Assembly: GCA_900291995.1 (NCBI GenBank)
Contig: OLMU01000154.1
Location: forward strand, 1-50,369
DNA: 50,369 bases
Direction: 5' to 3'
DNA from: Licmophora abbreviata
Lineage: Eukaryota
Shown: piece by piece, positions 37,201 through 48,250 of the stretch
How the letters are laid out: every line of letters begins with the position of its first letter
How positions within the stretch are numbered: the stretch's first letter is position 1
Translations under genes and position numbers: made by a program
The notes under the pieces: generated by a model
Told to the model about the DNA's origin: nothing
The model's input: the letters and a program-made list of their open reading frames with translations, nothing else
Database searches by the model: none

Positions 37201-40200
37201 TATCTGTACTGCTTCTGATTACAGCCTGAAAAAGTCGCAAGGCCGATACTCGCAATTGGACACCATAGGGGAGTTCTGCCGGGACAGCAATGAAAGATGT
37301 CCCGTTTTCACACTTCATAAGGCACTCTCGTCGAAGAAAGACCGAAGTGGCATGGCTAAGAAATGACATGCGACTTGGTTGGTTCAGAGATATTTGCTGC
37401 GCGGGCATCGCGTATCCGTTCTTATCCACCACAAAAGCCGCCAAAGTCTTGTCACTCATTTCACCGTCAGCAATGGAAGACATCTTGAGAAACTCTGAAA
37501 GGAAAGCAAGCAAGTGCTGGTCCTCGATCGTCAAGATGGTTGGGGCTTCATGGATTATAAACGCAAGTGCATCAATGGCACCGACCTGCTCAGGCAAAGC
37601 AAGGAGACGGAACGACCGTGCGAACAAGACTTTCTTCAGCGAAGGCAGAGTACCCGCCAAAAGTGAAGAATACTTCGAGCTTGAAACATGACCAAAATAG
37701 TGCTGAATAAAATGCCGGGCAGTAAACCTAAAGAACGCACAGAAAAGAGAACGATCAAACATTTCAGCGACCAGGCACGTTGTTGCATTTGTCAGTTTAC
37801 CCCGTCAGTCCCCACCTTACTATGGCATCTGCCGACATCAGCTCCAAAACGAGCAACTGTAGTACCGGCTTAGAAGGAGACACAACCCCCATTTCTCGTT
37901 CATCGCTTTCGTTCCCTGTCGTCGACTTATCGCGGGTGGGTGAAATGCTTTCGGCATTTTCCTTGTTTGCAGCAAGGACATCTTGTACAACCCGTGAGCC
38001 ATTTAAGGACAGGGGTGTACCGTACATCCTATTGAAGACGAGGTGGAAGAATCGAATTGCCTGGATCGAAGCGTTCGGAATTTCTCGCGGCGCAGTTTTT
38101 AGTGTCAACAGTGCAACCTGAACGATTTCAAGCTCATAACGCCTACTCCATTCCATTCCATTCTTCTCCATGACAAGGCATATAGCGTCGCATCCTCCCC
38201 TTCGGCGATTCCATGGCGATGACACACAGACGCGGCACAATTCGCTTAATAAACTCTCGAAAAACAGCTCCCGTCCCTTCCGAAGAGCAGAGGAACCAAG
38301 TGGCACCTTTTCTGACAAGCCCGATAACTTTGAGATGATTTCAAGACAGACCTCAGCTACAGCTCGGGATGAAGAACAAAGACTTTCGGCCAGAGCTCGA
38401 TTCACAACGAACGGATCAGCCTTTCCTTCAAACGGGCCGGAAAGATTAAAGTATCCAAACGGTGCCGATGTCAGTGACCGGGGACGGCGAGCGGTGTCTT
38501 CAGCTATCTTCTCCATTTCAGACGCATCTAGCGAAGTCGAAAGAATGCCTTGATCATCTTCAGCTAGTTGTGAGCCACTTGAGTCAATTCGGATTACATG
38601 GTGATGATGACTCGATACAACCAGGAAACAGTTTGACACGAACCCGTTCAGAAGGTGGCGAGCTTCCTCTCGTGTTCCCTTCAGAACGCTTGCGTAAATA
38701 AGACCTTCGCATAGACGTAGTACATATTGGTCGCGGCAGTCTGTGGACTTAGAAGTGATCTTGGGAAGCGCGGTATCGCTGTGTAGAACATCTTTCTCGC
38801 CCGGTGAGCCGTTATCGTTGACGATCACATTCCCGATATTGCGAAAGACCCCGATGTCTAGAATCTCCGTGAGCGACAGACGCATCACTTCAAAAGCAGC
38901 CCTTGCAGTAGCCCTTTTCGTCTCATCAACCATACCTGCGCAGTAAGAACTGAGATCAACGTCTTCCGGATGTAACGAGAAAAGCTGGTCATACTCTCGC
39001 CAAGTCACACTCGCGGCTTGCCCTGACGAGTCTTGCTCACGTCCGTTGTCTTCCTCAAGAGCAAATGATCTCAGCAATGCAGCCGACCTCGTCAAGGGAA
39101 GATGTATTGGGTAACTAGAGTCGCTATCAGAGCTTTTTTCCCGCTCGCTCACACCCGACCAGTCGCATACAATCTTCAGGAGATCCACATCCTCGGAGGA
39201 GATTGCTACGGAGGATAAATCCATCGCCTCCCTCAAGAAGCGACGATTCTTCCCCCCGAGTTTACCAAGCAGTCTCAAGGTAAGGAGGCCGTACGGATAT
39301 GGGGCGGGTCGGAGGTGGCCCGATAGCGAAGACATCAACTCCGTGAGTATATCGGTCTGGCGAGAGAGGATGGGATACAAGAACTCGGGATTTAGATTGT
39401 CCACCCAGAACTCTAGGGTCCGCAGTCTATGGTAGAAGGGAAAGCAGCTGAGTACAGAATGACCAGTGAAGATTCGCTCCGACACAAAACAGAATCTTAC
39501 CCAAGATTCACCAATTCTCCTTTGGTCGACTGGAGAGCGGGGATGATTACCCGAAGAAGCAAAGGCATGTGGGGGAGAAGAGATGACAGTCTAGCTGGAA
39601 CTGTCAGACAGAGCTCAACAATAGCGTGTCGAAGTTTTATGTGTTCAGTTGAACAATAAATCCTGTAAAGCCCATTCAATATCGCCGGAATCAAAGGCAG
39701 AAGCTCTTTGTAGGACTGCTCAAACTTTCCGGCTGAAATTGACCGAAAGATATGCCGGAGTAGTGTACAGTACTTGTCGGGCCAGCTCCCAGAGCTTTCC
39801 ATCGTGAAGCGAAGGCAAGTAGCTACGATTCGTTGCAAGTGAGGCCGCAGTACACTTTCATTCTCCGGAAATGCAGTCAGCGACTTCAAAACCCTCTCAA
39901 AGAGTTCAAGAAGAGTCGAAGCCCTCGCCTCTTGATCACCACTTTGGCTGTCGAGTTGCAGGAGCAGCTTCTCGGGGGCTGGAAACAGTTTGGTAGTGTC
40001 CATCTCCATGTTCGACTGGGAATCCATGAACAGAAATTCTCTCTCCGTGTTGACAGCTAGCTCGGTCATTCTTTCAACGAGGAACGAAAGCAAGACATCG
40101 CAGAAAGCAAGGCTAGCATTCTGGTTGGAGACAAGCAGATGACGAGGAATCACCATAACGTTACGATCCTCAACAATGGCATTCACCAAAACATCGGTAT

Positions 40201-42295
40201 ATCTTCCGATTGTCTGCCGAATATTCATTGCATCTAGGACGGTGAATGCAACCGCAAAATAGGTGAGAACTTCTCTGTACACCGTTGCCGAAGAGTGCGA
40301 TGTGTCGTCGGCGTAGATATCACGGTGATCCGATTCGCCCTTCGCCGTTTCCGTGCGGTCGAAGGACCCGTCTCTTCTTTTAAACACCCCAATACAGGGT
40401 AGTGCGTAGGAAATATATTTGTCAATCAATTCCTTTTCCCACGCAGTGAGCTTCTGATTCGCAGATGCAACCTGATCGTTCGAGCCCGAAGGACGTGCCG
40501 CGTGATCTCTGCCCTTCTCTTTCTCTCGCTGGTGTTTGTAGTTGTTGACACACCAAATGACAGTTTTGAGACCAACGACAATCGAGCGAACAATTGCCTG
40601 CAGGTCATGCACACTATCTCCCGACTCGGGTTCCACCTCGGACGACCAGAGCGTCCTATCGACGGCAGCAGATGACATTGAGTTTCTTGCTTGCAGCACC
40701 TCCACCTCCATCGGTATCACATCTTCAGTCTGAGGATCTCCTACTTCAGCCCCTCGAGCGACTTCGGCTGCCTGAACTTTTGGAATATAATCCTTCAGTG
40801 TGCCCAGCTTGCTCACGAGCGCTTCCAGAATACGTACCAGCAAGTCACGCCCCAGCTGAGGGTTCGGATCCTTATTATGAAAGATGATGTCGACAATGTT
40901 TAACAGCAGACGGACCGCCGTAATTTGTATCGTCATGGGAAGCTTCAAGGATGAGTCATGCAACACACGTGCGAATACATGTACCACGCGAGAGAGCTGG
41001 GCCATGCTAAGGAGTGACCTTGCGTGATGCACCAAATCGGCCAACGCTGAGTACCCCAACGGTCGCAAGACGGACTGGTCTGAATGCCGTGGATGAGACC
41101 CTATCAAGATGCGTTCATCGAGCAGCGCATCCACATGGCGAAAGAGACCTTTACGAAAGTCTGTCGCTAGAATATGACGTGTCGCCTGTAACAACTCACG
41201 ACGTGCGCCAATGCATTCTCTGGGACACGTTGTCATGAGTGAAACCACACTGCTAGCAATGCGGTCTTCATATGGCTTCATCTGTTCCCCGAAGCCTCGT
41301 AGAAATTGCGTTAGAAACGAGAGCGCCTTGACCTGAGCTGCAATCAGCTCCCGGGATCGAGAAAAGTACATGCGCTTGTGGTCGCTGGAAACCTTCTCGG
41401 CTGTCGCCGACTGAAGCGGTGGCGGTCGGAGTGCCAATGCTTCGATCATGACGTTAATCATGATGGAAATATTTGCCTTCATGAACTTCGGATACAACTG
41501 GAACAACAGCATGACCGCCAATGGACATTCCGTCAATACGCGAAAGGATGCCGTCGACTTGAGGGCCAATCGCGAGGTTGGGGTACTTGGTATTCCGGCC
41601 GAAGGGCTTGTACTTTTCGGCGTCGGTGCCGTCACCGGTTCCGTCATTACTAAATCTGACTTGAATGGCGTAGTCTGCGTCTCCTGCTCATTGTCTTGCT
41701 TATCAGTCGACAGCAACAAGTCCGACCCCGTCAGCGATGCTGTCGACCCTCCCCCGGTCGACATTTCCTTAGGGAACGTAAAGTTCCGCTGGACCGAAAC
41801 CGGTAGTGCACGGTACACGCTAACCACGAAATCTAAATAGGGCTGGACCAACTCTTGCGGCATGGTCCTATAGTTCTTGTGCAAATCAAAGATGATTCGC
41901 GACGCGACCAAGGCGTTGTCCTCGTAGTCTCGCGAGAGGGCGTCGCTCGCAATGCCTAATATCTGCGGCGCGTGTGGACGAAGCACCTCGTTGTTGGGCA
42001 ATCGACTTATAATTTCCAGCACAGAATTCCGTAGCTGCTGTTCCACAGACTTCGTATCCGGGTTGGGGCGGGTGCAATTGGACAAGACCGAAGCAAATGC
42101 AGGCAACAGAGCCGCTAGCATGGCGGGAAATTCCGTCGTATGCACAATTTCGATCCGTTCGCGAAGTTCTGTGGCCGCCTGGAGCGCGACGCTCAAGTCC
42201 GCGCCCAGAAGTTTCTTTCTCGTAGGCTCCCAGTCCATTGTGACTTCGATTGAAGTCAAATCTGCGGCAGAAAGAGCGGAAGATGCACTCATCAT
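28271..42295 (-). CDS. TRRAP: TRRAP/Tra1 PIKK pseudokinase scaffold (about 4,450 aa), multi-exon, with a frame break near 34325
   Basis: Tra1-like motifs LRNSVLEIISRLP, SFRVLTECP, VKALSFL, ELCLTVPARLSSLLP, LRTLEFWVDNL, LLGKLGGKNR, AWRHRLP, WIPQLL, YPQALY and VPFRMTPN. Kinase catalytic motifs are degenerate (ERTPTR, PDY). Introns 39427-39500, 37728-37815, 37096-37167, 34575-34648, 31578-31654, 31301-31378, 30829-30925 and 28705-28781. Confidence 0.93.
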
Positions 42296-42701: not shown

Positions 42702-43445
42702 ATGACTCGCAAAACGGAAGCCTCGCCACGACAAGATTCGATGAGCACTTCAAAAGATAAACTTGCGTGTGAAGAGCTGCAACGCCTGGAAATTGCAATG
42801 GATGACACCGCTGGTCTCGTGTTCGACTGCGACGGCACCTTGCTGGACACGATGCCTATCTATTTTGAGTCCTGGACGCGAACTTGTAATGAAATAGGTT
42901 TAAACTTTCCCATGGAGCGATTCTACTCGTTTGCTGGCGCTCCCGTGGAAGATATTTTTCAGACGCTGATTGACGAGCAGTGGCAAAATGATCATACCAA
43001 GCCGACTGCCGAGTACTGTTCGTCTGTCAAACGACGACACCACAAGAAGATAGAAGACGAGGGAATGATTGCAGGACCTGTCGACGTTGTTGTGGAGCTT
43101 GTTCATCGCTACCATGGAAAGTTGCCTATGGCAGTAGCAAGCTCAGGATGGAGAGACCATGTCATGGCCGGCTTGGAGCGCATTGGTATCCTGCACAAGT
43201 TCGATGCCGTTGTCACCGCCGACGATGATGAAGTTCATAATCCCAAGCCAGCACCCGATATATTCCTAGTGGCTGCCAAACGAATTGGTGTCAAACCCGA
43301 CGCTTGTGTAGGATTCGAAGATGCTGATTTGGGCATGCAAGCACTAAGGTCTGCCGGCTACCACTACTCGTGTGATGTCCGGCTTATGCACATGTATCCA
43401 CGGAACGTCGAGCGGCGCGAATCCGAAGGGCTCAGCGATGCATGA
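42702..43445 (+). CDS. HAD-superfamily subfamily IA hydrolase (beta-PGM/YqaB/CbbY-like phosphatase)
   Basis: Motif I FDCDGTLLDT, motif II VASS, motifs III/IV KPAPDIF and FEDADLG. Confidence 0.9.
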   Translation: MTRKTEASPRQDSMSTSKDKLACEELQRLEIAMDDTAGLVFDCDGTLLDTMPIYFESWTRTCNEIGLNFPMERFYSFAGAPVEDIFQTLIDEQWQNDHTKPTAEYCSSVKRRHHKKIEDEGMIAGPVDVVVELVHRYHGKLPMAVASSGWRDHVMAGLERIGILHKFDAVVTADDDEVHNPKPAPDIFLVAAKRIGVKPDACVGFEDADLGMQALRSAGYHYSCDVRLMHMYPRNVERRESEGLSDA

Positions 43446-43507: not shown

Positions 43508-46393
43508 TCAATTTAGATTACTCTTGCATGTGTGCCAATCTTGTATTGATTCCAGGGTTTCCGCAAAAAACCGAACTTCGCCTCTCGTATTGTAGTGAAC
43601 AAGCGATATGCGAACTGGCACGTCCGCTGATGGTCCGAAGTGCAAACAGTGCTGTAGCCGTTCGGTCGAGAGAAACGTGCTGGCCCGACAGACTACTCCA
43701 CGTTCGCGGCAAAACTTGACAATGCGAGCAGACGGGATATGGCGGTGCAGAAACGAGACAACAGGCAGTCTTGCAAGAGAGTCGATGCTGAGTTCGAGGA
43801 TCCTTACGTTGTGACAAGCGGTAAGCTTTGACAGTAGCAGCTCAACCAACGGTGCTTCCACACACCGAATGCGACGATACGACTCATTCACAATTTTCCG
43901 GGTGATCCTATTTTCAGGACACAGAAGCCTTCTCCCGTTTCTGCATCGATTAGAATAGGAACGCTGGCTTGAAGACCGCTGAAGCTGACCGGGCTTAAGC
44001 TGACAGGTAGCTAGCTGGTATACATAATCTCCGATGCCCGCCACACCGGCACACGCCTCATAGCTGACCGTCCCCTTTTCAAAGAGCCGTGCACGAGCTT
44101 CATCATCGTCATCGCACAGCAGCTGGGCCACAGCGTTCTTTCGGGCGCACAGGGCGCCAAGATGCGGACCGAACAGCTTGTGACATGAGACTGCGTACCA
44201 GTCAACGTTTGATACCGAAACGTCCGCCGGGACATGTGGTACTGCCGCCACACCATCAACAACAACATGTGCATGACCGTGTGACTTCTTCTTGACCACA
44301 CTGCAAAGTGATGCGACATCGTGAACTTGGCCCAATACGTTGGACGCATGAGGGAATGCCACTATTTTCGTTCTTGGTGTCACGACACCCTCCAACCTCG
44401 AAGAGCCGCTGCCGTCGTTGACTACATCCCACCACTTCACAAGTGCGCCTGTCACTCGAGCCGCACACAGCCACGGTGTCACATTGGCAAGATGATTTTC
44501 GGCGCAAACGACGATTTCGTCATTCTGCGTTAGCAGGCCTGACTCAACGTAGTTCTTCGCGAGTCTCTCAAGTAAGCTTGTAGCGTTGGCCCCAAGGAAC
44601 AGAGTGTGGTCGTTGCTGGATCCACCCAGAATAGTCAGTAGAGTCCGTCGCGCTGAATCCATACACTCGACGCCAAGTACGCAGCGGTCTCTGGCACATA
44701 GTGAGCCGTACACTGCATCGGCGACTTGGTTGGGAGCTTGAGCGCCGCCTGCGTTCTCAAAGAAGATCTGGGGACCCAAAGGTATCGAAGAGGAGTGTTC
44801 GCCGGTGGACGAGTCACTCAGCTCGCTGAAATAAGGGAACTGTGATCGAGCAAAGCGAGTAATCGCGTCCTCGAACGATGTCCCTGGAACAGAGGCCTCT
44901 CTTCCGTTCGTTGAATAAGACATGTTGAGAGGTGTCTTCCTGAGGAGTCCCCTCGACACATTTCTTTCGTATATGGCCCATCGAATCTTGTTCAATATGG
45001 AAGCCTTGGAAGGAACACAGAACTCGCGTTGTGACTGCAGAGTGCGAGTCCCAGCATCGTCATTCTCATTGTAGACGCACTTGAATCCACCTCGGCGTTC
45101 CGTTGCTGTGCCCGATACCTTTGGGAGAATCCAGAGCGAGAGAATATCACGAATAATGTCATCGTGTAGTTCCTCCGCCTGCGCGAGACCAGTCGCAGTG
45201 TCTTGAGATGGCGGCGCATTCACCTCCAGCAAGTAGGCAACAGGAAGACCATCGTGGGAGTAGGAGAGAATAAAGTCCATGCCCAAGTACTCCATTCCGT
45301 TGTTGGCTTCTCCTCCACGCAGGAAGGGGAACGTTGCTTGAGCCAACGCTGAGACAGACGCTGCAATCGACGGAAAGAACTTCGCTAGGGGCACAACAGA
45401 ATGCTCACAGGCACCTTTCATGTCGTCGGAAGTCTCGTCCAGGTCTGCACAAATCTCGCCGGCAAACTTGGCTGCGTCATGACTATTCGCGCAGCAGTTG
45501 GTAATGTGCTGTGACGGTTCGAATACTTTATCCCCGCTGCCCGACTCGGAAGTTGACCTATGATCATACTCAAAGAACTCATTCGCGACATGGAGAAATG
45601 CTCTCTTGTGCACGAAGGCTCTGCCGTCGCACGTCATGAGGCCGTACACACGAACATGGAACTTGCGACCGCCGTACAGCAATGGAGGCCATGCATATCG
45701 CTGTGCCACGTAGCGGTGCTCCTCCTGCAGGGGAGTCACTCTCGGGTCCGCGAGTTCTCTAGCATTTCGCGGATCTACGACCCAAATACCGCCAGCTCCA
45801 TTGGAGTTGGCATCCTTGACTACCCACAGGTTGTGCGGTGAGGATCGTGCCGACGACAGGTCTGTACGTGTGTTGACGGAATCGTCGAGAAGATCTGGAC
45901 GTCGACGATCCTGACCACCAGAAGACCCAACGACGTGATCAATAGACCACATTTCCACCTCATCACAGAATGATCTATATCCCCTGATTCCTCTAAAGCA
46001 GTGACTCTCGAGGGTCGCAAGAAAAGGATTACTCTCGTCGTTGTCCATCTGTGCCGATGAGCTGGTGGCATGATGACGATCAAATAGCCTCGCCAGGACC
46101 CACTTGTCGTCCAGAATAGCAGTTCCGTTCGGTAAGTGGGAATAACATCGAGCCTGGTCGCGATAGGCTTTCGTCTTGTGTCGCGGAGCATTCTCCCACA
46201 AAAAATGAGGAGGTTGTGTGTCCTCGATCGTCTCGCGAGAAGATGTCGATGATGCATAGGGACTGACGTCGCGCCAATGCGAAGGAAGTAGCGGTGTCAG
46301 GCGCGAATGGGCAGCTCTCCCTGTTACTTCAAAACGAATGTGTTCGCTGAGGTCATGATGATCCGATGACGAGCCCGTTTCGCCTGTCCTCAT
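43508..46393 (-). CDS. Fusion of a tubulin-tyrosine-ligase-family ATP-grasp domain and a class-V PLP-dependent (cysteine-desulfurase-like) domain
   Basis: One uninterrupted 961-aa ORF. N-half: WVVKD..SNGAGGI, AQRY..PPLL..RKFHVRVY, HITN, EYLGMDF, LLEVN..P. C-half: FFENAGGAQ, NHLANV.PW, HASNVLG, VDGV..VPH, SCHKLFGP, EKGT, VRISLVHYNT. Confidence 0.88.
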   Translation of the reverse strand: MRTGETGSSSDHHDLSEHIRFEVTGRAAHSRLTPLLPSHWRDVSPYASSTSSRETIEDTQPPHFLWENAPRHKTKAYRDQARCYSHLPNGTAILDDKWVLARLFDRHHATSSSAQMDNDESNPFLATLESHCFRGIRGYRSFCDEVEMWSIDHVVGSSGGQDRRRPDLLDDSVNTRTDLSSARSSPHNLWVVKDANSNGAGGIWVVDPRNARELADPRVTPLQEEHRYVAQRYAWPPLLYGGRKFHVRVYGLMTCDGRAFVHKRAFLHVANEFFEYDHRSTSESGSGDKVFEPSQHITNCCANSHDAAKFAGEICADLDETSDDMKGACEHSVVPLAKFFPSIAASVSALAQATFPFLRGGEANNGMEYLGMDFILSYSHDGLPVAYLLEVNAPPSQDTATGLAQAEELHDDIIRDILSLWILPKVSGTATERRGGFKCVYNENDDAGTRTLQSQREFCVPSKASILNKIRWAIYERNVSRGLLRKTPLNMSYSTNGREASVPGTSFEDAITRFARSQFPYFSELSDSSTGEHSSSIPLGPQIFFENAGGAQAPNQVADAVYGSLCARDRCVLGVECMDSARRTLLTILGGSSNDHTLFLGANATSLLERLAKNYVESGLLTQNDEIVVCAENHLANVTPWLCAARVTGALVKWWDVVNDGSGSSRLEGVVTPRTKIVAFPHASNVLGQVHDVASLCSVVKKKSHGHAHVVVDGVAAVPHVPADVSVSNVDWYAVSCHKLFGPHLGALCARKNAVAQLLCDDDDEARARLFEKGTVSYEACAGVAGIGDYVYQLATCQLKPGQLQRSSSQRSYSNRCRNGRRLLCPENRITRKIVNESYRRIRCVEAPLVELLLSKLTACHNVRILELSIDSLARLPVVSFLHRHIPSARIVKFCRERGVVCRASTFLSTERLQHCLHFGPSADVPVRISLVHYNTRGEVRFFAETLESIQDWHTCKSNLN

Positions 46394-46919
46394 TGTCTAA
46401 AGGAAAGCACAAATCCAATGCGATACAAATTCGAGCAATCGAGAAACGAGTCAAACTGGCGCTGAGGGTCGTTCCAATCTGAGTCAGGCCCAAAATTGAG
46501 CATCCAGAGAAGTCGTGCCAAGGCGAGGATATATGCGGCGTGTCTACGTTCCTCGCCGTCTTCCAATCCAATGCAGGGTTTGCTTTTGCACAACCACATG
46601 AAACATGAGATCGCAGATCACAGCGTCTCGCGGGTTTTGCGTGTTTTCAGTTTGTCGCGCGGGCTTCTCAAAATCGAGCTCCTTTCAGAGCTAAGCGTCT
46701 CAAATAGCACGCAAAAGGAAAAAGTGCGCGCCGAGATGAACACATCAGCATCAGCACACTCGCGTCCACCCGTCGCGCCGCTCGCCGCCGACGAGACACG
46801 CGTGACGGATGCGATGACAACCATCCTGTACTAATACTCGTACATTCGCAATAAACTGAGGTCTCCGTCGTTGACCCACGTTGAAGGACACCGGAAGACG
46901 TAGATTCGCGACAAGAACA

Positions 46920-48250
46920 ATGAGTTTGGTCAGACTACTCTTCGCTTTAAGCTGCTTCACATTTCACAATGCCAGTATAAAACATGGCGCACGGGCTTTC
47001 GCATCATCTTGCACGTTTTCGAAACTTGGTGGCGGCGCATCGACTGCATCCTTCTTATCGACTCGGCGACTGATCCCCTCTCATCTGAGAACAAGAACCT
47101 CGCTGTCTATGAAATCGAGCCCCCCATATCCAGTGCGCATCGCAGTGATGGGGGGCGGGAACTTTGGTCTCGCCTTGGCAACCGTATGTGCTCGAAAAGG
47201 TCTCCCTACTACACTACTGGTCCGCTCCGAAGATATCGTCGAGTCAATCAATAACAACCACACGCATCCTAGATACATGTCGGAACTGAAGCTTCCCACC
47301 AAGATTCGCGCTACTACGGATCCTGGGGCAGCTCTTCCGGATGCAACCTATATCATTCACGCAGTGCCGGTCCAGTACAGTCGTCAGTTTCTCTCGTCAA
47401 TCAAGGAGTACGTGGACCCAAACACCCCCATTCTCAGTGCCTCGAAAGGTATTGAAACGTCAAGTCTTGGTTTCATGGCAGATATTCTCAAGGATGAGCT
47501 GGGAAAGGATCGGCCTTATGCCTTCTTGTCGGGACCATCCTTTGCCAGAGAAATTGTGGAGGGCGTAGCGACGGCTGTCGTCATTGCCTCTGACGACATC
47601 TTGCTGGCCAAAGATCTTGCGGAACTTCTTTCGGATGACAACCTTCGATGTTTTACGTCCAAAGATGTCATGGGAGTCGAGATTGGAGGAGCCGTCAAGA
47701 ACGTTATCGCATTGGCCGCGGGAATGTGTGAAGGGCTGGGACTAGGCACCAACGCCATGAGTGGTCTTGTCACGCGAGGGTGTGGTGAGATGCGGAGACT
47801 GGGCCTTACCTTCGGTGCAAAACCGAGTACGATTGCTGGTCTTTCCGGTGAGTTCCTACTGTTTGTATTGTGTGCAGCAAACATGACTAGAGAGATCCTG
47901 TGTGGCTCAATGGCGACTCCATGTTGACTATTTGGCCTTCAGGGGTCGGGGATACATTTGGTACATGTTTTGGCCCGCTATCGCGAAACCGAAAGTTCGG
48001 ATTTCGACTAGGTCAGGGGGAGACGATGGAGCAGATTCGAGAGTCAACATCAGAGGTGGCGGAGGGTGTGGACACGTCTATCGCACTGGTGGACCTTATC
48101 AAGACGAAATGCAAAGGTTACCGCCTCGATCTAAAATACCCAATCTTGTTTGGTGTTGCCAGTATTCTCGAGGGGCAGCAAACTCCCCTTGACGGACTAA
48201 AAGGACTCATGAACATGCCGATGCAATGGGAGAACTTTGACGAACGCTAG
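46920..48250 (+). CDS. NAD(P)H-dependent glycerol-3-phosphate dehydrogenase (GpsA type), probably plastid-targeted, 2 exons
   Basis: Motifs GGGNFG, SKGIE, LSGPSFA, GGAVKNVIA, GLSG|VGD, LSRNR and VAEG. Intron 47848-47942. A signal peptide ending ARA-F is followed by an S/T/R-rich transit region. Confidence 0.93.

Follow-up and report, generated by a model that had tools for sequence, protein, structure and literature searches.

Identification of a fused ligase-PLP gene

The window, which is the whole stretch of 50,369 nucleotides analysed herein (Licmophora abbreviata, contig OLMU01000154.1), carries on its reverse strand a long single-exon open reading frame (Table 1), the coordinates of which were confirmed codon by codon, and using the window's own stop-codon frequency of 0.031, the probability of a run of 961 stop-free codons was estimated to be 5.5e-14. 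The encoded protein, P0001, was found after Pfam search to consist of an ATP-grasp domain of the TTL family (PF03133) followed by a PLP domain of class V (PF00266), both exceeding the gathering scores, in agreement with an earlier note on this DNA, in which a fusion of these two domains within one ORF was predicted from the letters alone. All the motifs quoted in that note were located in the 961-aa translation, including WVVK (residues 190-193), QRY (231-233), KFHVR (244-248), HITN (296-299), GMDF (371-374) and LEVN (389-392) in the ligase half, and ENAGG (546-550), NHLAN (633-637), VDG (712-714), SCHK (736-739) and RASTFLS (903-909) in the PLP half. The domain spans proposed at that time were roughly right, except that the ATP-grasp domain is longer, extending from residue ~17 to residue ~480, and therefore the true linker is just the short segment up to residue ~510. 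The mean column conservation in the alignment of 60 orthologs is 0.14 at residues 481-500 vs 0.6-0.8 in the domain cores.

Table 1. Location of the fused gene, its domains and its key residues in the window
Feature	Position	Strand	Basis or remark
Whole single-exon ORF	43508..46393	-	961 codons plus TGA stop, ATG start; encodes the two-domain protein P0001
Pby1-like TTL-family ATP-grasp ligase domain, residues ~17-480	44954..46345	-	PF03133, model, profile
Lys193 (WVVK), putative ATP-binding lysine	45815..45817	-	Invariant
Lys244-Phe-His-Val-Arg248 (KFHVR), nucleotide/acyl-phosphate motif	45650..45664	-	Pby1 alignment, invariance
Asp373, Glu390, Asn392 (GMDF...LLEVN), putative Mg2+ ligands of the ATP-grasp site	45218..45277	-	Invariant
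Inter-domain linker, residues ~481-510	44864..44953	-	Short, poorly conserved
Class-V (fold-type I) PLP domain, residues ~511-955	43529..44863	-	PF00266; TIGR01976/Rv3778c/UstD-like, without catalytic Cys
His634 (NHLAN), ring-stacking histidine	44492..44494	-	Invariant (60/60); aligns with the His of Fgm3 'VDHESN'
Asp713 (VVDGVA), PLP pyridine-N aspartate	44255..44257	-	Invariant (60/60); also in bacterial TIGR01976 proteins
His738-Lys739 (SCHK), Lys739 being the Schiff-base lysine	44177..44182	-	Lys739 invariant (60/60)
Arg903...Phe907-Leu908, loop bearing the persulfide cysteine in SufS	43670..43687	-	Cys position is Leu
Arg928 (VRISLVHYNT), putative binder of the substrate α-carboxylate	43610..43612	-	Arg in 59/60

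Conservation of the fusion among diatoms

Both domains were present in all of the 120 homologs listed (of 222 with E <= 1e-3), and the orthologs among these matches align with P0001 over 97-99% of the length with no large gap. The listed homologs include proteins from both pennate and centric diatoms, and the ortholog of Leptocylindrus danicus, which derives from the MMETSP transcriptome, is also fused. All 71 members (100%) of the Atlas cluster carry both domains, Bacillariophyta being the commonest phylum. Out of 47 metagenome loci, 34 hold both halves, and the two halves are in one uninterrupted ORF at 27 of these 34 loci, while at the remaining 7 loci the halves lie next to each other on one strand, with their order unchanged. 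Nothing was found in favour of a chimeric assembly or an erroneously joined gene model, the three short contigs that were aligned stopping short of the linker, and such an artefact has virtually no chance of being the explanation, because the fused ORF was found on many independent contigs, in the genomes of named diatoms and also in a transcriptome; the assembly artefact against which the earlier note had cautioned is refuted for practical purposes by the 120 fused homologs together with the 27 loci.

The gene is a real nuclear gene conserved across diatoms. The encoded protein is probably cytosolic, and inspection of P0001 by eye indicated that no additional N-terminal segment precedes the conserved domain. 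A literature search turned up no published characterization of a ligase-PLP fusion, in line with the earlier note, to whose author no characterized protein of this architecture was known. The neighbours of the fusion gene in the window are HAD and GPDH, which recur in 0 of the 47 related loci, and the genomic context gives no hint of a pathway.

The ligase half and its relationship to Pby1

PF03133 matched residues 181-424 (E 2e-17; 63.8 bits vs the cut-off of 20.1), and the AlphaFold model of the ligase half (pLDDT 87, pTM 0.90) includes a C-terminal helical extension at residues 443-479, with pLDDT above 90 over residues 461-480. As to the residues expected for ATP-grasp catalysis, K193, K244, R248, H296, N299, D373, E390 and N392 are all invariant in the 60 fused orthologs, and Lys193 stays invariant in all 76 sequences after addition of the stand-alone relatives. 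The TTL and TTLL glutamylases and glycylases share with the diatom ligase half the Pfam family, the fold and the ATP/Mg residues, and the VIA Z values against the TTL, TTLL and Pby1 structures range between 19.6 and 26.7, with TTLL11 (26.7) at the top, followed by TTL (23.4), TTLL7 (23.1), TTLL6 (22.5) and Pby1 (21.6 over 313 residues, rmsd 4.2). More distant ATP-grasp neighbours of this fold are ArgX (Z 16.7), LysX (Z 16.1) and BacD (Z 12.5).

The closest solved relative in sequence is, however, Pby1 (fungal P-body protein with a C-terminal ATP-grasp domain; PDB 6y3p and 6y3z), which was matched with 2.3e-6 and 1.5e-5 and is only ~20% identical, and Pby1 was also the best in profile ranking, with 121 and 112 bits vs 95 for TTL. 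The motifs KFHxR, HxTNxC and LLEVNA are common to Pby1 and the diatom ligase half: KFHVR aligns with 'GRKFHIRCY' of both K. lactis and S. cerevisiae Pby1, and LLEVN aligns with Pby1 'LLEVNAFP', of which the Glu is equated with TTL Glu331 in the excerpted text of the Pby1 paper. The likeness to Pby1 that the earlier note had pointed out is thus borne out, and judged by these alignments and profiles the ligase half is nearer to fungal Pby1 than to the tubulin ligases. The two proteins differ in the partner domain. According to the Pby1 paper, the fungal protein has a SurE-like domain at its N-terminus and binds Dcp2 through the residues of a 'YKR' patch; in contrast, the diatom protein carries a C-terminal PLP domain, and the SurE-like domain is absent from P0001, for which Pfam shows TTL and Aminotran_5 only.

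These findings bear on the possibility that the fused protein is a tubulin writer with its own supply, in which the TTL half would add the amino acid from the PLP half to a Glu side chain or the C-terminus of tubulin. All the top structural matches are indeed tubulin ligases, and to our knowledge all the characterized TTL and TTLL enzymes act on protein carboxylates, but we consider this role improbable, because in both sequence and profile Pby1 is a better match than TTL or any of the TTLLs, and Pfam indicated no additional microtubule-binding domain in P0001. As a weak argument in the same direction, the gene has been retained in the pennates, a group devoid of flagella. For Pby1 itself, the excerpted paper notes conservation of the ATP site and the catalytic residues, regards Pby1 as probably a ligase, though not one acting on tubulin, and argues against tubulin from the lack of conservation of the tubulin-facing surface. 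The Pby1 likeness of the ligase half therefore speaks against tubulin, one of the targets suggested in the earlier note.

The PLP half and its closest relatives

PF00266 (Aminotran_5) matched residues 575-758 (E 6.6e-37; 127.8 bits vs the cut-off of 21.5), and the model of the PLP half has pLDDT 88.5, both halves being modelled with confidence. The best structural match was M. tuberculosis Rv3778c (PDB 3cai; VIA Z 42.5), followed by SufS (39.8) and UstD (39.7), and the lower matches include C-DES (34.8), a carbon-sulfoxide lyase (8irk; 32.4) and Egt2 (27.3). The best NCBIfam model, TIGR01976, matched over model positions 18-399 of 401 with 201.1 bits, below its curated cut-off of 352.35, while the top solved sequence relatives are Fgm3 (7.3e-30) and UstD (1.5e-25). 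The PLP half is therefore closest to the TIGR01976/Rv3778c/UstD/Fgm3 group. The core PLP motifs listed in the earlier note, the His of NHLAN, the Asp of VDG and the Lys of SCHK, are kept without exception in the 60 orthologs, and the residue at position 738 is His in 58 and Gln in 2 of them. With respect to the ring-stacking residue, the pi-stacking in Fgm3 is done by a His according to the GntC paper. The motif around Arg928 is common to Fgm3, UstD and the bacterial TIGR01976 proteins, and from its position in this motif Arg928 would correspond to Arg385 of KpbH, to which the KpbH paper assigned the binding of α-carboxylate.

The nearest stand-alone homologs, with 31-36% identity, are the bacterial TIGR01976 proteins (VC1184-type 'cysteine desulfurase-like protein'). 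The motif set collected from 13 bacterial members consists of ENAGGSQVP, GPW, APH, YKVYGPH, RHGHMY and VRxSLVHYNT, and the diatom proteins keep ENAGG(A/S)Q, PW, (V)PH, GPH and VRxSLxHYNT, whereas YK and RHGHMY of the bacterial proteins are replaced by HK and RxxxFL, respectively. Among 61 immediate neighbours of the bacterial TIGR01976 genes, neither an ATP-grasp enzyme (0/61) nor a conserved partner was detected.

The fungal Cys-less class-V PLP enzymes UstD, KpbH and Fgm3 (PDB 7mkv and 9x4u) are ~25% identical to the diatom PLP half and share with it the absence of desulfurase Cys and the motifs NAGG and VRxSLVHYNT, but they are stand-alone enzymes of natural-product clusters, whereas the diatom enzyme is fused. 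In the TIGR01976/Rv3778c/UstD/Fgm3 group, the members characterized so far act on the β or γ carbon of amino acids, where a bond is either cleaved or formed: UstD catalyzes β-decarboxylation of L-Asp to an enamine and then forms a C-C bond (decarboxylative aldol), KpbH catalyzes a decarboxylative Mannich reaction via the enamine from L-Asp β-decarboxylation, and Fgm3 is a retro-aldolase. The Schiff-base site is Tyr-Lys in UstD, Fgm3, KpbH and bacterial TIGR01976 proteins, but is His-Lys in the diatom enzyme as in the case of SufS. This Tyr (Y225 of Fgm3 and Y231 of KpbH), which was implicated in the chemistry of Fgm3 (GntC paper) and of KpbH (KpbH paper), is absent from the 60 orthologs examined, and since His takes its place, UstD-like chemistry may not carry over to the diatom enzyme.

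Loss of the desulfurase cysteine

The type-II desulfurases SufS and CsdA have the same fold as the diatom PLP half and the same PLP-binding His, Asp and His-Lys, but differ in the catalytic Cys. After alignment of SufS 'RSGQHC' with P0001 'RASTFL', the Cys of SufS falls on Leu908, which is Leu in 58 of the 60 orthologs, and the 60-ortholog alignment contains no conserved Cys elsewhere in this loop. The loss of the persulfide Cys, pointed out in the earlier note, was thus confirmed, and because the catalytic Cys is missing, persulfide formation is impossible for the PLP half. In parallel, the NCBIfam scores of desulfurases stayed far under the cut-offs, for SufS (132.8 vs 475), CsdA (91 vs 607), NifS (43 vs 531) and IscS (31 vs 643). 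The orthologs carry in their sources such names as 'selenocysteine lyase/cysteine desulfurase' and 'Cysteine desulfurase', and an enzyme of this kind, delivering sulfur or selenium, would agree with the SufS-like fold, with many of the sequence matches and with the SufS-type His-Lys; with Leu at the Cys position and the SufS score as low as noted above, however, this activity is hardly to be expected. Since Leu occupies the desulfurase Cys position in nearly all the orthologs, the databases probably mislabel these proteins as 'cysteine desulfurase/selenocysteine lyase', and the correction of annotation extends to many diatom genomes and metagenomes, in which the proteins so named lack the activity-defining cysteine.

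A C-S lyase that is independent of Cys might act instead on a substrate such as cystine, cysteine sulfinate or the sulfoxide of a thiohistidine, of which the ovothiol intermediate is an example, and the ligase might then conjugate the thiol or amino-acid product. The Cys-less class-V enzymes C-DES, 8irk and Egt2 are among the structural neighbours, and diatoms make ovothiol B, for which the excerpted literature on ovothiol does not name the diatom OvoB gene. Nevertheless we take such a role to be quite improbable: C-DES and Egt2 rank under Rv3778c, SufS and UstD, the characterized OvoB is described in the excerpts as a class-I/II-type lyase, and OvoA of P. tricornutum is reported therein to be mitochondrial, whereas P0001 appears to start directly with the conserved domain.

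Phylogeny and parallel fusions

In the PLP tree, all the eukaryotic sequences are separate from the bacterial clade with the support of 100, and 8 'PLP-only' eukaryotic proteins nest inside the fused clade at 5 places; one of these proteins (P0181) has a fused cluster mate of 886 aa (P0390). On a separate branch of the ligase subfamily, the partner of the ligase (P0375) is an aminotransferase of class I/II that resembles 2-aminoadipate aminotransferase (2egy, 3e-32), the enzyme feeding LysX in lysine synthesis of Thermus. The pairing of ligase and PLP enzyme, as in LysX or ArgX with LysW, or in BacD, is an analogy only and not a homology of systems, these being separate prokaryotic proteins of a different ATP-grasp family, in contrast to the diatom pair within one protein. 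In addition, a closely related ligase is fused to a Sir2 domain, an arrangement equally compatible with action on proteins and with a metabolic role. The repeated fusion of this ligase subfamily with a second catalytic domain provides 'Rosetta-stone' hints, open to testing, that point to the chemistry of amino acids or acyl groups.

The unrelated nature of the partners (class-V PLP, class-I/II aminotransferase, Sir2 and fungal SurE-like) could also mean that the ligase is a general targeting or regulatory module. The two halves would then be uncoupled, either one being a pseudoenzyme or binding module, or the fusion serving merely for co-regulation or co-localization; alternatively, the order could be reversed, the ligase product being the substrate of the PLP half. 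A precedent is found in the excerpts of the Pby1 paper, in which the ATP-grasp domain binds Dcp2 and the E693Q mutant of yeast Pby1 still suppressed the growth defect, indicating that binding but not catalysis mattered and that a domain of the Pby1 type does not need catalysis in order to act. The catalytic residues of both halves of the diatom protein are, however, invariant in 60 of 60 orthologs, which shows both halves to be under selection and is hard to explain by a pure binding module, and we regard uncoupled or reversed halves as rather unlikely.

Proposed function of the fused enzyme

Because the fusion is conserved, the product of one half is most likely the substrate of the other. 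Indirect arguments for such coupling are the retention of the fusion in pennate and centric diatoms, the position of the 'PLP-only' proteins within the fused clade of the PLP tree, and the parallel fusion with an aminotransferase. We propose, with about an even chance of being correct, that the protein is a bifunctional enzyme, in which an α-amino acid is made or trimmed by the PLP half and then joined by the ligase half through an amide bond to a carboxylate. The gene, its fusion, the two folds, the conserved catalytic residues and the missing Cys were observed directly, whereas we infer the two activities and their coupling as well as the substrates and the sequence of steps. In the inferred scheme, the PLP half would be a dimer-type class-V enzyme that binds a free α-amino acid as the external aldimine, in which a bond at the β or γ carbon is then broken or made. 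One option is the loss of a β-substituent (CO2, SO2 or thiol) to leave a PLP-alanine enamine, and the alternative is an aldol or retro-aldol step; either L-alanine or a γ-substituted amino acid would result. The ligase half would then convert a carboxylate into acyl-phosphate with use of ATP/Mg2+ and join the amino group of the PLP-half product, so that the amino acid becomes ligated to the acceptor carboxylate, for which a non-tubulin protein or a small molecule is the candidate. Of the two products suggested in the earlier note, an amine or an amino acid, the amine fits less well, since the closest characterized relatives of the PLP half carry out β/γ-carbon chemistry and not α-decarboxylation, and making or trimming of an α-amino acid is therefore the better reading.

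A narrower version of this coupled scheme, which we regard as rather unlikely, is a self-contained make-and-attach enzyme that transfers a non-standard α-amino acid or alanine from the PLP half either to the carboxylate of a non-tubulin protein, as a new post-translational aminoacylation, or into an amide or dipeptide metabolite distributed diatom-wide. Diatoms are an ecologically dominant group of algae, and the retention of the protein throughout this lineage, pennate and centric, hints at a metabolite or a protein modification specific to diatoms. If the make-and-attach scheme is true, the diatom enzyme together with the aminotransferase and Sir2 fusions would offer the first handle on the role of the Pby1-type ligases. 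The PLP half also adds a new branch to the UstD/Fgm3 group of enzymes, which are wanted for biocatalytic C-C bond formation.

Identification of the TTL-PLP fusion in diatoms

The 961-residue protein of the fusion gene (P0001) consists of an N-terminal ATP-grasp ligase half and a C-terminal class-V PLP half, both of which are members of known superfamilies. The motifs by which the earlier note had recognized the two domains were all found in the translation of the ORF at the positions where it had placed them, and the chance of 961 stop-free codons, with the stop-codon frequency taken from the window itself, is about 5.5e-14.

Features of the fusion gene and of its surroundings in the window
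Feature	Position	Strand	Description
Fusion ORF	43508..46393	(-)	961 codons, ATG start, TGA stop
TTL domain (PF03133)	residues 181-424		E 2e-17, score well over the Pfam gathering threshold
Aminotran_5 domain (PF00266)	residues 575-758		E 6.6e-37, score well over the Pfam gathering threshold
Cys-Cys pair C300/C301	45494-45499		directly 3' of the HITN motif
HAD hydrolase gene	42702-43445	(+)	HAD_2, 5e-28; convergent with the fusion gene
Interval between stop codons	43446-43507		62 bases, HAD gene to fusion gene
Tra1 fragment	39497-42295	(-)	HEAT-repeat central region; two genes downstream of the fusion gene
Glycerol-3-phosphate dehydrogenase (GPDH) ORF	46881-47927	(+)	stops inside the C-terminal domain (profile positions 1-83 of 142)
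Second ORF near GPDH	47900-48250	(+)	frame other than that of the GPDH ORF

The search with the full-length protein yielded 222 proteins at E <= 1e-3, and both Pfam domains were present in every one of the best 120 of these 222 (120/120) examined for domains, with 39-55% identity and, for most, about 97% coverage of the query. The sources of the fused homologs, where named, are all diatoms (Cylindrotheca, Seminavis, two Nitzschia, Mayamaea, Amphora, Fragilaria, Cyclotella, Stephanocyclus and Leptocylindrus), with both pennate and centric forms represented; since the Leptocylindrus ortholog was derived from an MMETSP transcriptome, the fused mRNA is present in at least one diatom. At the DNA level, both halves were identified in 34 of 47 related metagenome loci, in one uninterrupted ORF in 27 of the 34, while in the remaining 7 the two are next to each other, with strand and order kept but the frame changed, consistent with an intron or an assembly frameshift. 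Six other loci of the 47 reach the contig end and seven are distant TTL-only relatives. The ESM Atlas cluster of the fusion protein has 71 members, all with both domains and with Bacillariophyta as the commonest phylum; a search of the same atlas with the TTL half gave generic TTL clusters only. The sequencing-run contigs matching the fusion gene are three in number (140-303 bases, 100% identical), one covering part of the PLP half and two part of the TTL half, and none of these three short contigs spans the linker. The TTL-PLP fusion is real, and the probability of an artefact of assembly or gene modelling is negligible.

Full-text literature searches turned up no paper on a TTL/ATP-grasp plus class-V PLP (desulfurase) architecture, diatoms included, nor did those directed at Pby1 and the UstD/Fgm3 enzymes. 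Predicted orthologs are already deposited in public databases, where their names are either generic or most likely wrong. New are the conserved TTL-PLP fusion, the His-Lys variant of the PLP group that has no Cys, and the tie to Pby1-type ligases.

The ligase half is related to Pby1

Among PDB representatives, the fold of the ligase half is closest to TTLL11 (Z 26.7), TTL (23.4), TTLL7 (23.1) and TTLL6 (22.5), followed by Pby1 (21.6) and TTLL3 (19.6); the next folds are the amino-group-carrier ligases ArgX (16.7) and LysX (16.1), with RimK (15.9) and glutathione synthetase (15.8) after them. The order by sequence is unlike this ranking: the sole clear matches of solved structure are Pby1 of K. 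lactis (2.3e-6) and of S. cerevisiae (1.5e-5), in which GRKFHIRCY, HLTNTC and LLEVNAFP align with KFHVR, HITNCC and LLEVNAPP of the query, and a profile of the ligase subfamily gave 121 and 112 bits for Pby1 against 95 for TTL, 92 for TTLL7, 86 for TTLL6, 71 for TTLL3 and 68 for TTLL11. The likeness to Pby1 that the earlier note had pointed out is thus supported by the top rank of Pby1 in both comparisons. In the Pby1 paper, the ATP and catalytic residues are described as conserved and the tubulin-facing surface as poorly conserved, the substrate as unknown, and a SurE-like domain as located at the N terminus. This last domain is absent from the diatom fusion protein by Pfam analysis, and therefore the latter is Pby1-like and not an ortholog of Pby1. 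A ligase specific for tubulin, the reading nearest to the fold ranking, is improbable beside the closer relationship to Pby1 in sequence.

After alignment of 60 fused orthologs, the ligase residues K193, D194, N198, Q231, K244, H246, R248, H296, N299, C300, C301, N303, E313, E368, D373, E390 and N392 were found to be invariant (60/60), and 12 ligase residues stayed invariant among 76 sequences when 17 TTL-only or otherwise-fused relatives were added. The adjacent cysteines C300 and C301 are thus kept in all 60 fused orthologs; Pby1 has TC at this site.

The PLP half lacks the desulfurase cysteine

The top NCBIfam model for the PLP half was TIGR01976, "cysteine desulfurase-like protein", which matched over nearly its full length with 201 bits against a cut-off of 352, while the SufS model gave 133 bits against a cut-off of 475. 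The top sequence matches of solved structure were Fgm3 (7.3e-30) and UstD (1.5e-25), then SufS enzymes, and by fold the highest scores were obtained for M. tuberculosis Rv3778c (Z 42.5), SufS (39.8), UstD (39.7) and C-DES (34.8), with lower values for selenocysteine lyase (32.9), kynureninase (32.4) and Egt2 (27.3). Among stand-alone homologs the nearest come from bacteria, with a length of about 410 residues and 31-36% identity, and many of them are named TIGR01976 by their source (JGI). They share with the diatom enzymes ENAGG(A/S)QVP, PW, PH, GPH and VRxSLxHYNT, but differ at the Schiff-base site, which is SCHK in diatoms and S(T/A)YK in bacteria, and in the loop, which is CRxxxFL in diatoms and RHGHMY in bacteria.

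The RSGQHC segment of SufS was aligned over RASTFL of the diatom protein. The position of the desulfurase cysteine is Leu in 58 of the 60 fused orthologs, and none of the neighbouring loop positions carries a conserved Cys in this set, so that persulfide-forming desulfurase action is impossible; a true cysteine desulfurase, to which the names of the orthologs and the SufS-like fold would point, is scarcely credible. The names "selenocysteine lyase/cysteine desulfurase" or "Cysteine desulfurase" are carried by the fused orthologs P0004, P0010, P0012, P0017, P0068 and others. Because the family is without the catalytic Cys, such names are probably wrong. In the PLP half, H634, W641, H682, N685, D713, H720, Y733, K739 and T775 are invariant (60/60), and R903 and R928 are kept in 59 of 60.

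As described in the respective papers, the chemistry of UstD, KpbH and Fgm3 takes place at the beta or gamma carbon of an alpha-amino acid and does not require cysteine. UstD decarboxylates L-aspartate at the beta position to an enamine that is added to aldehydes; KpbH performs the same type of enamine step onto an imine, and in its model Tyr231 is near the side-chain carboxylate of Asp, with Arg385 close to the alpha-carboxylate; for Fgm3, retro-aldolase action on a gamma-hydroxylated arginine is described, with Tyr225 as the proposed base. In place of this Tyr of Fgm3 and KpbH, the diatom enzymes have His738 (58/60), as does SufS, so that their exact reaction may be another one. Equally possible would be the simple loss of a beta-substituent, whether CO2, SO2 or a thiol, to give alanine. 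A C-S lyase is very unlikely, and its OvoB version finds no support in the ovothiol papers examined.

Possible coupling of the two halves

The structures of the ligase half (pLDDT 87.0, pTM 0.90) and of the PLP half (pLDDT 88.5, pTM 0.89) were each predicted with confidence. Since the helices at residues 443-479 are part of the ligase model, the linker is short, and only residues 481-500 fall to a conservation of 0.14 in the 60-ortholog alignment. In the reaction scheme we propose, the PLP half, using beta/gamma chemistry that is independent of cysteine, would make or trim a free alpha-amino acid, and the ATP-grasp half would convert an acceptor carboxylate to the acyl-phosphate and join it to the amino group of this amino acid. 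That the PLP half supplies the amino acid and the ligase half attaches it is plausible, with about equal weight for and against. Uncoupled halves, a pseudoenzyme on one side or the reversed order are, taken together, unlikely, and a small remainder of probability goes to readings beyond those considered.

Other fusions of the ligase subfamily, which were unexpected, bear on this scheme. P0375 (994 residues; Logan contig of 12339 bases) carries the ligase domain (residues 225-512) and a class-I/II aminotransferase (PF00155, residues 657-986, 3.5e-34) similar to multi-substrate, kynurenine and 2-aminoadipate aminotransferases; its ligase domain falls in a separate subgroup (support 1.0) of which the other members are stand-alone, and this fusion thus arose independently. 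P0389 (754 residues; on a 6317-base ENA contig) shares a cluster with the shorter P0320. Of the ligase relatives it is the nearest to the fused clade, with 33% identity to query residues 15-477, and it has a Sir2 domain (PF02146, residues 490-663, 7.2e-15) in place of the PLP domain. Including the SurE-like domain of Pby1, the subfamily adjoins four different catalytic partners, two of which are amino-acid PLP enzymes, giving mild support to the pairing of an amino-acid maker with a ligase, while the Sir2 fusion leaves room for a protein-directed role. TTL and the TTLLs provide the precedent for protein acceptors, and this together with the Sir2 fusion favours a protein as acceptor; a small molecule is favoured by the wider ATP-grasp superfamily (BacD, glutathione synthetase and D-Ala-D-Ala ligase) and by the metabolic nature of the partners.

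Evolution and genomic context

In a quick maximum-likelihood IQ-TREE analysis of 79 PLP domains (P0321 was left out for its coverage of 0.58), the 13 bacterial TIGR01976 proteins formed a single clade (support 100, branch length 1.6), separate from every eukaryotic sequence. Eight eukaryotic "PLP-only" proteins fell at five places inside the fused clade, and one of them, P0181, shares a cluster with the fused 886-residue P0390; the best reading of these PLP-only forms is thus that they are fragments or split secondarily, and one old fusion event is the simplest account. In a FastTree analysis of 33 ligase domains (16 of 59 fused rows and all 17 other relatives), the fused domains with P0320 and P0141 were split from the 15 other relatives with a branch support of 1.0, and the stand-alone relatives appear eukaryotic.

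For the context of bacterial TIGR01976 genes, 43 of 80 loci (L048-L127) were chosen, and the matching ORF was found by a crude ORF caller in 35, of which 33 gave a total of 61 immediate neighbours. No ATP-grasp enzyme and no conserved partner or pathway hint was detected among these 61, of which 23 are without family at E <= 1e-8. Thirteen of the 61 are peptidase-like (three Rce1-like, two each of S33, M1, M56 and S8, one M48 and one Met-zincin); the three Rce1 neighbours are from closely related genomes, and the peptidases could be there by chance in peptidase-rich phyla.

The distant TTL-only loci L041-L047 are about 30% identical to residues 10-418, and their TTL genes consist of two ORFs about 180 bases apart (for instance, 1797-2711 and 2892-3308 of L047), probably split by an intron. 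A PLP enzyme is absent from the neighbouring genes of these loci; in L047 the flanking genes encode a DUF900 hydrolase and an AAA_12 helicase.

In the window, the genes flanking the fusion gene are eukaryotic, and with the named homologs all from diatoms we infer that the window is part of a diatom-type nuclear genome. The fusion protein is probably cytosolic, because by eye its sequence has no N-terminal extension ahead of the conserved domain. The HAD and GPDH neighbours were found in none of the 47 related loci, while Tra1 homologs are near the fusion gene in three (L015, L038 and L039), which points to local synteny in some diatoms; the synteny around the fusion gene carries no functional linkage. 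With so few bases between their stop codons, the 3' UTRs of the HAD gene and the fusion gene probably overlap. The second ORF downstream of the truncated GPDH ORF looks by eye like the remainder of the GPDH C-terminal domain, suggesting that this gene is interrupted by a short intron or a frameshift.
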